A DNA stretch of 18,316 nt from IMG/VR virus record IMGVR_UViG_2526164603_000034. One strand, 5' to 3'. Origin of the DNA: a virus. Lineage: Duplodnaviria; Heunggongvirae; Uroviricota; Caudoviricetes. Made by a program: the position numbers. This document shows positions 9,001 through 12,000 of this stretch, piece after piece (positions within the stretch are counted from its first letter, which is position 1; the number at the start of each line of letters is the position of its first letter).

Positions 9001-12000
9001 ATCATTATAGCCTTCGGTCATCGGCGTATTCAGCGCACGAACTGCACCCGGCGACATCTTACCGGTCAGCCATTCATCAGTGGCTTTGGCACCATCACTG
9101 ACAGCCTTACCGGTTGCCTTCAGACCTTTACCGACAGTATCAGTAACCGCGTTTTTGCCATCAGGCAGGGTATCGATGACCTCATCAGCCCCCCTGCTGC
9201 CACCGGCAAAAATATCCTGCACAGTTGCGACACCCGGCAGCCCCATACGGCTGAACTCATTTAAAATACGCGCCCCTGTTTTTACCGGGCTCTGAATCAT
9301 CGCATCACCGAGTCCACGGGCCATTTCCCCTGTTCCCCGGACGGACTGGGCGAAACCTTTACCCATTGTTGGCAATACATCGCCCAGGCTGAACGACGTA
9401 CTGTTATCCTTCCAGCGATTCGGATCAGAGAAAAATGCTTCATAGCTGTCAGTTTCGCCGGGTTGCTGAATGTTCAGGCTGTTACGATTCTGGTTACCGA
9501 GTTGCGCCTCAGGACGCTGTTCCTCTGAATAGGCCATACAGACTCCATAAAAAAACCCGGCACAATGGCCGGGCATCAGGAAATGGTATTAATGGAATAT
9601 CGTGAATTACTGGGCGTAATTCTGTTTCAGTCCACGGATAAACTGAGATGCAGATGAAGCACTTTCATCTCTGGCCTGTTCCCCCCTGGCCTTTTGAATA
9701 CGGAGAAAATTCGCATACCCGTTCTCCAGCAATTTCTGATTCTGAGGTTCCAGCATTTCAGGCTGACGGGCCGCTACATTTCTGGCAAATGACAGCTTAT
9801 CAGGATCATCTCCCGCCCAGTTGATAACCTGTTGCTGAAGTTTTTGTTGCTGAATTTTCTGTTGATGCGGTTGTGAACCAGTCGCAGCATAATATTCATC
9901 CACCGCAGCCTGAGCATTACCGCCATTCTTGATCGCGTCCGCCGCTACGTTGCTGGCCCCCTTCTGAAGCTCTTTCAGAGAAAGTCCCTGCTGCTTCGGC
10001 ATAAAATAACCATAATTTTTCGATATCTCTGCAAATTTGCTGCGATCCCTGACCTGAGCGATAGCCTTATCAACGGGTATCGCCAGCACGGTTTGATCAT
10101 CAGGGTGCGCACTGCCGTATTCTGTTACAGGTTTATGCGCGGTGGAGCCATCGCTGTATGTGAGATCAAGGCCAATAAGTACGTACCCTTCCTGCTGCGC
10201 TGGTACGATACTGCCAATCCTGGCCTCTTTTATCGTTTTGTCCCCGGTTGAATCAGGCATGCCAATACGCTGTTGTAGTTCCGGGGCAAACACGCCGGAA
10301 AGCACATCGAGATTTTCCGGGGTATTCAGCGAATCGATCGCCATGTCCGGCTTATCACCAAAGATTTTTTGCAGGTTGATCACGGCCTGACCCGCTTTCG
10401 CTGCATAGCCTTCGTTTGACATAAGAATTAATGGATGTCCCTTTGGCAGCTGCCCGAACAGACGCGTTGCAGCCTCCTGATCGCCAGCCTCAATTGCTTT
10501 TCCAAGCGCTTCCATTAGTGGCTGGCTATGGGCAATCATATCGTTATACTCAAGCCGTCGCTGGTTGTATTTCTGCAACTGGAGTCGCTGCTGCTCCATA
10601 CCCAGTGACGCATTCCGGTAATTCTGGTTAGCGTTAAACTCCCTTTCCTTCAGTGCATAATTACGGTCGTCAACTTTGGCTCTGTAATCAAAGTTCCGCT
10701 GATCAACGTTTTTATTATGTTCAAACTGAGACTGCGCAAACTCAAAATCGCGCTCGTTATTTTTCTGTTGCCGGGCAAGCTGTGCTTCACGCAGACCAAG
10801 CTCCTTACGACGGGTCATTGCCTGGTCAACGGTGCTGAATCCGGCAAGTAACCCCTGTGCAAATCCGCTCATTCACCACTCCTTAAAACAAAGAACCAGC
10901 AATGCCGCCAATTACTGCTCCAGCAACAGCACCAACAGGACCACCAACGGATGCGCCAATAGCCGCCCCCGTACCAATGCCCGTACCGATATTCTGCTTG
11001 TTCTGCGCTTTCTGTTGCGCCGCCATCTGTTTGTTCGCAGCCTCAATTTCTTCACGTCGTCTGTCTGCGTCACTTATTCCCTGTAATGCCTCACGCCGCG
11101 ACTGATTTGCAATATCCAGTAAACCGTATCCCATATTGCCCCCTTACGCTGCCACCAGTTGGCCGCCAACACTCAGTTTCTGTCTTGCCGGTGCAGAAGC
11201 CCCCGTCAGAATATTCATCTGGCGATCCTGTTCGGCTTCACGGATACCATTTTTCGCGCCAGCAATTGCCAGGGCATTACGTAACCCCAGCGTATTACTG
11301 TCGGGATTATCCGGGCGGTTTACCCCGTATCTCGCCATCTGGTTATCCTGCGCCATCTGCGCTGTACGGAGACTGGAAGTGGCAAGGCCTCCCACCCGTG
11401 CAAGCTGTGCATTCATCAGACTGTTGTTCTCCCCAAGGTCAGCCAGCCTTGCCACGCGGGGCAAATATCTGGTTCGCCAGTCGTCGTATTGTTGGCGTGT
11501 CAGCGCTGCTGACGTCTGCCAGTCACCCTGTGGGCGGTCTGCTCCTGAATAACCAGCCCTTGCGAGAGTTTCGTATTTGCCATACTCCATAATTACAGTC
11601 TCCAGTTCTGAGCCTGATGCTGAATGGCATTAGCGCCGGTGCCAGGTGTTTTAGCACCGCCACTTCCTCCGCTACCGCCAGCCTTATGCATCGCATATGC
11701 ACCTGCCGCACCCAGACCAGCGCCAACAAGAGAGGCTCGCCCCTGCTGTTTCGTAAACGCCGCCTGTGCATCCGATTTAGCTTTTGCCAGACTGCTGTCT
11801 GCCAGAGAGTTAAAACTCTGTAACGCATCCGCCTTCTGACCAGAACCGAGAGCAGCAACATCCTGTAGCCCGGCAACATACTTATCTGCCTGCGATACCT
11901 GCCCCCGTGTGGTTGTGTCAATCTGCCCGGTTACCTGGTCACTCTGGTTCGCATTCATTACCGCATTAAAACGACCACTGGATGGGTCAACGCCGGACTG

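Follow-up and report, generated by a model that had tools for sequence, protein, structure and literature searches.

The annotated 'bacteriocin' of short-tailed Shiga toxin phages as a putative virion-carried, gp7-like membrane-insertion module

We have analysed an 18,316-nucleotide (nt) stretch of Caudoviricetes DNA (IMG/VR record IMGVR_UViG_2526164603_000034; hereafter the window), which is the late region and prophage end of a short-tailed Shiga toxin (Stx) prophage in E. coli O157:H7 and abuts the host gene yfdC. Our subject is open reading frame (ORF) 78, located at 10883-11134 on the minus strand (stop codon included), which encodes an 83-amino-acid (aa) glycine-zipper mini-protein known as ORF78/ECs1240 in Sp5, L0132 in 933W, H0148 in VT2-Sakai and gp49 in phi24B. 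Its RefSeq/PGAP product name is 'bacteriocin' (WP_000540391.1), and this label is probably wrong. With slightly more confidence than doubt, we read ORF78 as an accessory, virion-carried membrane-insertion module of the DNA ejectosome in Stx podoviruses of the 933W/Sp5/phi24B type, similar in kind to P22 gp7. As a part of this reading, towards which we lean to the same modest extent, ORF78 would represent, as a separate and shorter protein, the glycine-zipper module found at the C-terminus of P22 gp7-class ejection proteins. Such a reading corrects an annotation that has spread through thousands of E. coli genomes and has already made a proteomics study discard a virion signal. Stx phages spread Shiga toxin genes, and their DNA delivery is almost uncharacterised; the literature searched contains no paper joining glycine zipper, phage, ejection and virion.

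The translation of ORF78 (MGYGLLDIANQSRREALQGISDADRRREEIEAANKQMAAQQKAQNKQNIGTGIGTGAAIGASVGGPVGAVAGAVIGGIAGSLF) falls into two parts. Residues 1-47 (10994-11134, minus strand) start with the kept motif MGYGL[LI]D, continue into a charged, Q/K/E-rich part and include eight Lys/Arg and seven Asp/Glu, with helices predicted at 4-20 and 30-47. Residues 48-83 (10886-10993, minus strand) contain no charged residue at all, and 19 of these 36 positions are Gly or Ala. Glycines at 52, 56, 60, 64, 68, 72, 76 and 80 place eight of them in i+4 register along the 32-residue tail, within a single predicted helix (52-81), and the protein terminates in ...GSLF-COOH. A register of at least eight glycines arose at a frequency of 1.45e-4 when residues 48-83 were shuffled 200,000 times, and the run is the longest among the 176 stop-to-stop frames of the window, the giant ORF80 being second with five. 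An earlier note on this DNA had described the product as having a charged N-terminal half and a GxxxG-rich hydrophobic C-terminal helix, and both the composition and the shuffle test bear this out.

The highest 19-residue Kyte-Doolittle mean of ORF78 (1.69) falls on residues 57-75. With its hydrophilic N-terminus, no signal peptide and one C-terminal hydrophobic helix, the protein has the topology of a tail anchor, and it contains a YMGG-like zipper in the sense that Gly or a similarly small residue recurs every four positions through three or more turns of a hydrophobic helix. The AlphaFold2 (AF2) model, made from a shallow alignment, reproduced the helices 4-20, 30-47 and 52-81 at a predicted local distance difference test score (pLDDT) of 56; it gave these three helices only and no confident tertiary fold. 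The gene is real, as judged by its membership of PHROG 594 (phrog_594, E 1.9e-45; labelled function unknown in PHROGs), its large profile family and a tryptic peptide detected by mass spectrometry (MS) in phi24B. Two plus-strand ORFs lying over it (10832-11086 and 10902-11105) are unsupported and were discarded as by-products of the GGN/GCN-rich coding strand.

The closest counterpart in a known ejection system was found in the C-terminus of P22 gp7, which ends in ...GSSTPWGAAIGGGIGLLGSLF where ORF78 ends in ...SVGGPVGAVAGAVIGGIAGSLF. In both proteins a Q/A/N-rich stretch is followed by GxxxG repeats with a GP(V/W)GA core and by the same terminal tetrapeptide. Comparison by hhalign of the ORF78 family (alignment A3) with 115 gp7 homologues plus P22 gp7 gave a probability of 96.4% (E 1.4e-9), pairing ORF78 residues 20-83 with gp7 residues 166-229, flush at both C-termini, and 106 of the 116 gp7 sequences end in SLF, as does ORF78. 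Reversed-alignment controls of the same comparison reached 1.4-2.0%, and ORF75, ORF77 and ORF79, used as negative controls against gp7, 0.1-0.3%. One ORF78 relative (P0034) carries a precomputed match to the Pfam family PF25688, 'P22 DNA ejection protein gp7' (27.3 bits; the gathering score is 28 bits). When 133 members of the ORF78 family were scanned at E<0.01, 39 matched P22_gp7 (best 1.7e-8, four at <=2e-6), 90 matched Gly-zipper_YMGG (PF13441; six at E<=2e-6) and 35 matched Bacteriocin_IIc; T7_gp14 matches were confined to two of the 133 relatives and were weak (E ~6e-4).

The genes are also similarly placed. Both ORF78 and gene 7 lie directly upstream of a gene for a 420-470-aa protein, which is followed by the gene for the largest internal protein, and the P22 order 14 (151 aa)-7 (229)-20 (471)-16 (609) parallels ORF77 (148)-ORF78 (83)-ORF79 (421)-ORF80 (2793). 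In published accounts, P22 gp7, gp20 and gp16 are packaged and leave the virion before the DNA, K+ release and DNA entry depend on all three (PMC10461980), and they join the tail hub one after another to build a 50-nm channel across the envelope. Unlike gp7, ORF78 has 83 rather than 229 residues, and is without the N-terminal 165 residues of gp7 and its OpdA-cleaved 20-residue leader. The N-terminal ~50 residues of ORF76, on the other hand, aligned with gp7 residues 22-75, just past the OpdA cleavage site, at 33-39% probability. This suggests that gp7 may be the counterpart of ORF76 and ORF78 together, a lead from profile comparison and not an established correspondence. With regard to the other proteins of the cassette, the ORF75, ORF77 and ORF79 profiles reached only 0.1-0.7% against every P22 virion protein, and BLASTP of ORF75-80 against P22 gp4, 10, 26, 14, 7, 20 and 16 gave nothing significant.

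A comparable gene layout is seen in more distant podoviruses, as T7 gp14, N4 gp52 and DEV gp73 are likewise small hydrophobic helical proteins whose genes immediately precede those of a medium and a very large ejection protein. N4 gp52-gp51-gp50 and T7 gp14-15-16 show the same small-medium-giant arrangement, the largest N4 protein having 3500 aa. ORF78 differs from T7 gp14 and N4 gp52 in being half their size, in having one hydrophobic helix where they have several, and in being non-essential. When ORF75-79 were compared with N4 gp51 and gp52 by hhalign, no relationship appeared; for ORF78, where these served as further controls, the probability was 0.2-0.3% (N4 gp52 0.2%).

Moreover, the zipper repeats of tape-measure proteins match the ORF78 zipper as well as gp7 does (hhalign 93-95%, at most 64% identity over 33 columns). 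Tape-measure proteins, too, leave the virion, and a role in forming the membrane conduit is attributed to them. Those with TMP_3 and Gly-zipper_YMGG domains carry modules near-identical to that of ORF78, e.g. PIGIGIGAAIGAIAGGPVGALIGAGIGGLVG, but these are internal and repeated 5-8 times in proteins of 800-1400 aa from long-tailed phages, whereas ORF78 has one terminal copy in a podovirus. Since the ORF78 zipper matches tape measures and gp7 alike, what is shared is the module, and this module is found repeatedly in phage proteins that exit the virion and make a DNA conduit. Podovirus ejection proteins and siphovirus tape measures would in this way be linked through one shared membrane module. 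A further step would be to regard the GGPxGAxxGAxxGG zipper as a common, exchangeable membrane-insertion cassette of DNA-delivery machines, which in Stx phages would make, together with the giant-protein zipper and the ORF79 N-terminus, a hetero-oligomeric pore for DNA and the giant protein; we consider this speculative and on the whole unlikely. The zipper itself is present in three forms: a separate protein of ~80 aa in Stx/GP4-type podoviruses, the gp7 tail in P22-like phages and tandem repeats in tape measures.

Helices with Gly at every fourth residue also occur in the YMGG/Rick_17kDa/SlyB lipoproteins (PF13441, PF05433, PF13488). ORF78 differs from these in having neither signal peptide nor lipobox, in its phage context and in its PF13441 score, 25.7 bits against a cut-off of 28.9 bits. 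When solved structures were searched with the ORF78 and ORF79 profiles, nothing was found below E 0.1. The ORF78 profile gave a hit (E 0.15) to residues 117-150 (GASVGGPIGAIVGGVVGL) of 7qog_M, the capsid-packaged cargo protein gp45 of crAss001, which is not significant but in keeping with the pattern seen here.

The ORF78 family is large and keeps its genomic position. Its profile, searched against 1.84 billion cluster representatives (clusters at 50% identity), matched 563 clusters at E<=1e-3 (140 at E<=1e-10), which are almost without exception 76-90 aa long and aligned over their full length. In addition, 76 viral contigs were gathered through homologues of ORF79 (down to ~30% identity) and the ORF upstream was inspected. 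In 74 of the 76 loci a zipper ORF of 79-165 aa ended 11-19 nt before the start of the ORF79 homologue, both exceptions having a 5'-truncated ORF79, and a giant LPD-domain protein lay downstream in every context with downstream DNA covered. Near homologues of ORF78 are all E. coli 'bacteriocin' entries. Distant ones (31-53% identity) come from Vibrio splendidus, another genome and a JGI metagenome, and their genes are placed likewise, preceded by those for proteins of ~218 and 127-176 aa and followed directly by an ORF79 homologue of 514-563 aa. In the Vibrio and second-genome loci a giant LPD protein (LPD39, or LPD5/LPD1/LPD38) comes after the ORF79 homologue, and the DNA covered of the JGI contig ends within the next large ORF. 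The giant gene is sometimes set apart by a moron island in relatives, and the Aeromonas phage phiARM81mr has the same gene layout. The host range known from named records comprises Escherichia, Shigella, Vibrio and Aeromonas. A tblastn search of phages with ORF78 covered residues 1-31 only, as the low-complexity filter masked the zipper.

Within the family, conservation is concentrated at the two ends. The N-terminus MGYGL(L/I)D and the glycines G56, G68, G72 and G76 are conserved, the GPxGA core is present in 110 of the 133 members scanned, and 94 of them have a C-terminal F. Between the N-terminal domain and the terminal zipper lies a spacer of anything from zero to ~130 residues, which suggests a bipartite protein made of a docking end and an anchor. 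Some members of 108-223 aa (loci L080, L083 and L084, where the ORF ends 17 nt before the ORF79 homologue, and proteins P0140, P0125 and P0154) have an Ala/Gly/Thr-rich low-complexity insert between the conserved N-terminal 50 residues and the zipper. In a few database proteins (P0047, P0072 and P0147) the ORF78 module is fused in frame to the N-terminus of an ORF79 homologue; P0047 reads through the intergenic spacer, and P0072 consists of ORF78 residues 1-58 plus ORF79, its C-terminus being garbled. Genuine fusion, prophage decay and sequencing error are all conceivable sources of such proteins.

The immediate junctions of ORF78 are equally tight. Just 5' of its ATG, the TAA stop of ORF77 leads into the ORF78 Shine-Dalgarno sequence (TAAGGGGGCAAT; TAAGGGGGCAATATG; 11135-11146, minus strand), and just 5' of the ORF79 ATG the TAA stop of ORF78 overlaps the ORF79 Shine-Dalgarno sequence (TAAGGAGTGGTGA; TAAGGAGTGGTGAATG; 10873-10885, minus strand). 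As judged from this arrangement, ORF78 is translationally coupled to both ORF77 and ORF79. No promoter-like site was found in 9400-13300, where shuffled sequences average 3.6. The guanine-plus-cytosine (GC) content of ORF78 is 0.54, equal to that of the neighbouring virion genes; it is 0.39-0.42 in the low-GC stretch upstream of lom (13600-14800). The coupled stops and Shine-Dalgarno sequences, the absence of an own promoter and the virion-gene-like GC content together indicate that ORF78 is a coupled late-operon gene and not a moron.

These properties bear directly on the annotation. Taken literally, the product name means a bacteriocin or other membrane-damaging toxin: a pore-forming peptide, secreted or released, by which competitors are killed. 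Like the class IIc bacteriocins (PF10439), ORF78 is a short peptide with a GxxxG-rich hydrophobic sequence, GxxxG-rich helices being typical of class II bacteriocins, and it gives a weak Pfam Bacteriocin_IIc match (E 8.8e-4), as do the 35 relatives mentioned above. However, the score of 19.7 bits lies below the 27.1-bit cut-off of PF10439, and no NCBIfam bacteriocin model matches. Nor is there a double-glycine leader, as residues 1-63 contain no GG and the first one (64-65) lies within the zipper, and the surroundings offer no transporter, ABC/C39 peptidase or immunity gene, the neighbours being virion or hypothetical phage genes. The bacteriocin label was rejected on these three defining features (score, double-glycine leader, export/immunity genes). 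The position in a late structural operon, where its translation is coupled and it lacks its own promoter, as well as the tie of the family to ORF79 and the giant gene, also argue against such a toxin, which we regard as largely refuted and very improbable.

The same evidence speaks to the idea that ORF78 is a membrane protein expressed in the lysogen or concerned with lysis (superinfection exclusion, a holin/antiholin-like function or lysis timing) and unrelated to the virion. A small protein with a single hydrophobic helix that is dispensable for plaques would suit this role, and lom and hok/gef, located nearby, are morons for membrane proteins. Yet ORF78 does not resemble a moron, given its GC content, its lack of an own promoter or terminator and its coupling on both sides, and its position is kept in distant phages whose morons differ. 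In addition, the lysis cassette of these phages lies elsewhere, as is known of the 933W genome. Altogether this explanation appears improbable.

Published experiments place the neighbours of ORF78 inside the virion. According to a phi24B preprint (10.64898/2026.04.10.717836), gp47, gp48, gp50 and gp51, which correspond to ORF80, ORF79, ORF77 and ORF76, are abundant in purified virions at roughly 20-70 copies each (estimated per virion: gp48 ~30-56, gp50 ~36-73, gp51 ~22-41), and none of the four is visible in the cryo-electron microscopy map. Its authors proposed gp47 as an encapsidated ejection protein, and diffuse density in the adaptor lumen was gone after ejection. Marker-free in-frame deletions across Sp5 (Mondal et al., PMC5155283) showed that ORF79 and ORF80 are essential, their mutants packaging DNA and giving no infectious particles, and that deletion of ORF76 markedly reduced infectivity.

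With regard to ORF78 itself, the phi24B data set (10.64898/2026.04.10.717836) lists gp49 ('E. coli bacteriocin') in purified virions with 13 spectra, 6 in the batch digest, and the peptide EALQGISDADR. Its authors put it down, like Lom and Bor, to contamination on the strength of "functional annotation". By their length normalisation (6/83 compared with 101/724 for the portal, taken as 12 copies) we calculate ~6 copies of gp49; the adaptor gp62, of which there are truly 12 copies, scores 2.1 on the same scale. Because the hydrophobic, 36-residue half of gp49 is free of trypsin sites, ~6 copies is likely to be an underestimate. The case for packaging of gp49/ORF78 in the virion is suggestive.

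Several observations nevertheless weigh against ORF78 as a gp7-like ejection module. The single ORF78 deletion in Sp5 (primers given; MGYSLF is left) is absent from the nine lethal and two impaired mutants, and the gene is dispensable in K-12 for plaque formation and lysogenisation (PMC5155283), whereas gene 7 of P22 is essential (PMC10461980). The MS evidence for gp49 amounts to essentially one peptide with low counts, at the level of the outer-membrane proteins Lom and Bor, so that membrane debris could explain it. ORF78 itself gave no PF25688 match at E<=0.01 and stays below all Pfam thresholds. Its zipper is of low complexity and matches generic YMGG-type and tape-measure zippers as well as gp7, and the likeness may have arisen by convergence. 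Finally, ORF79, the candidate 'medium' (gp20/gp15-like) ejection protein, could not be linked by structure or sequence to gp20, gp15 or N4 gp51; its AF2 model (pLDDT 63, predicted template modelling score 0.40) found no match in the PDB by Foldseek at E<=0.001. If the favoured reading holds, the non-essentiality of ORF78 implies that it is redundant or conditionally important, unlike gp7.

Some of these points fit better with a role during assembly in the producing cell, where ORF78 would act as a tail-anchored inner-membrane or chaperone-like protein and would not be part of the injected channel. The tail-anchor topology, the tight co-translation with ORF77 and ORF79 in conserved synteny, and a virion signal that is low compared with those of the neighbours, from a non-essential gene, are all compatible with this, and the recombinant essential Sp5 proteins were highly insoluble (PMC5155283). 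One may picture zipper contacts that cover the hydrophobic segments of ORF76, ORF79 and ORF80, or keep them in order, while the procapsid is being loaded, an activity to which we give the same low probability as to the role in assembly as a whole, which we consider unlikely though worth keeping in mind. Against it, the ORF78 tail is related to the C-terminus of gp7, itself packaged and ejected, and to tape-measure zippers, the ORF78 peptide was found in purified virions, and a variable linker joining a conserved N-terminal domain to a terminal anchor suits a tether better than a chaperone.

Returning to ORF78 as an ejection module, the following course of events can be proposed. ORF78 is made late, coupled to ORF77 and ORF79 as the sequence shows, and from a few to about a dozen copies would be packed in the head with ORF76, ORF77, ORF79 and ORF80; for these neighbours the presence in the virion is taken from the published proteomics, for ORF78 from one peptide. 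After receptor engagement it would be expelled through the tail in an extended three-helix form without a globular core. By analogy with P22 gp7*, T7 gp14 and tape-measure zippers, the 30-residue helix with its all-Gly face might then insert into the envelope of the infected host and pack with itself or with the small-xxx-small helices of the ORF76 Gly-rich C-terminus, the ORF79 N-terminus and ORF80 around aa 420. The packed helices may form or seal the membrane-embedded part of a trans-envelope conduit for DNA and the giant protein, and the conserved N-terminal motif, on its linker of variable length, may dock to a partner protein. With these four conserved small-xxx-small helices, the passage of a 2,800-residue polyvalent protein and of the genome across the envelope becomes open to concrete tests. 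The membrane role suggested in the earlier note is supported indirectly by the module shared with the gp7 C-terminus and tape measures, with the difference that the relevant membrane is, by the same analogy, more likely to be the envelope of the newly infected cell during ejection than that of the producing cell.

The giant protein ORF80 (ECs1242, phi24B gp47; 1156-9537, minus strand) is a polyvalent protein with LPD5, LPD1, MuF_C and LPD38 domains. It has a glycine zipper of its own at aa 418-438 in the numbering of the 2806-aa frame (ATIEGAAFGAAMGAPFGAVAG, then YRGRR; 8263-8325, minus strand), with five glycines in register from G422 to G438, just where such a segment had been noticed before (aa 421-438). 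A second segment claimed near the C-terminus is also present in a weaker form, as a GxxxGxxxG motif at 2551 and a hydrophobic stretch at 2458-2480 within LPD38. The zipper at ~aa 410-440, followed by RGR/RGK, is kept in nearly all giant homologues in which that region was read (loci L009-L084), and it persists even where ORF79 is only ~30% identical; some relatives have a second zipper ~60 residues upstream. However, the ORF78 profile did not match the giant zipper significantly (hhalign 3.7%; hmmsearch 4 bits), and homology of the two zippers was dropped, the motifs being shared at the level of likeness only. The proposal that the small and the giant protein act together is upheld in so far as linkage in 74 of 76 loci, coupling and the conserved giant zipper point to one functional unit, and any direct contact between them is conjectural.

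A short GxxxGxxxG motif (GFAQGLLAG) also occurs at the N-terminus of ORF79 (codons 1-11, 10840-10872; MSGFAQGLLAGF), and its G7 and G11 never vary among homologues sharing 19-29% identity (alignments A2 and A4).

Some further features of ORF80 were recorded. A terminator-like hairpin lies at 9555-9574 (minus strand) between ORF79 and the giant gene, within 9537-9606. As the first 13 codons of the 2806-aa frame overlie this hairpin, the giant ORF most likely starts at the annotated position 9537 (2793 aa). At the ORF79/giant junction, Vibrio, Aeromonas and another relative have moron islands inserted or leave a gap of ~2 kb. The giant protein also has two HExxH motifs, HEWFH and HEIIH (aa 1297 and 1564 in the 2806-aa numbering), neither of which falls within the MuF_C match (aa 1763-1852). 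MuF-C was called a metallopeptidase in the phi24B preprint (10.64898/2026.04.10.717836) and is a predicted RNase (PBECR) domain in Iyer et al. 2017; any peptidase activity of the giant protein would map outside the MuF_C match.

The remaining members of the cassette are encoded on the minus strand as well. ORF75 (ECs1237; 133 aa, 12343-12744) opens it and is followed by ORF76 (ECs1238, phi24B gp51; 218 aa, 11593-12249), which has a degenerate Gly-rich hydrophobic C-terminal segment, ORF77 (ECs1239, phi24B gp50; 148 aa, 11144-11590), ORF78 (83 aa), ORF79 (ECs1241, phi24B gp48; 421 aa, 9607-10872) and the giant ORF80 (2793 aa). The present analysis helps to define these six genes (ORF75-80) as the internal-protein cassette of this virion type. 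Over 9500-13000 the sequence agrees with that of many short-tailed Stx-converting phages (VT2-Sakai/Sp5, 933W-like, Sepvirinae) at 100% identity.

Between the tail genes and this cassette lie a Hok/Gef-family toxin gene (12801-12941, minus strand) and lom (13174-13908, minus strand). Terminator-like hairpins flank these morons and the GC content is 0.39-0.42 over 13600-14800, a typical moron architecture unlike that of ORF78.

At the far end, the window departs from VT2-Sakai at 17799, where IS629 begins; its left end (TGAACCGCCCCGG...) runs over 17799-18316, with OrfA at 17853-18179. The element removes approximately the first 28 codons of ORF70 (16180-17798), the nozzle gene that is essential in Sp5, and because of this loss the present prophage copy is probably unable to form infectious particles. 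At the near end, positions 1-933 (plus strand) are host yfdC, a member of the formate/nitrite transporter family, and no tRNA genes were found in the window. The prophage end falls between 934 and 1155, which makes the giant gene the last phage gene, and the yfdC/prophage junction recurs in 224 complete E. coli genomes.

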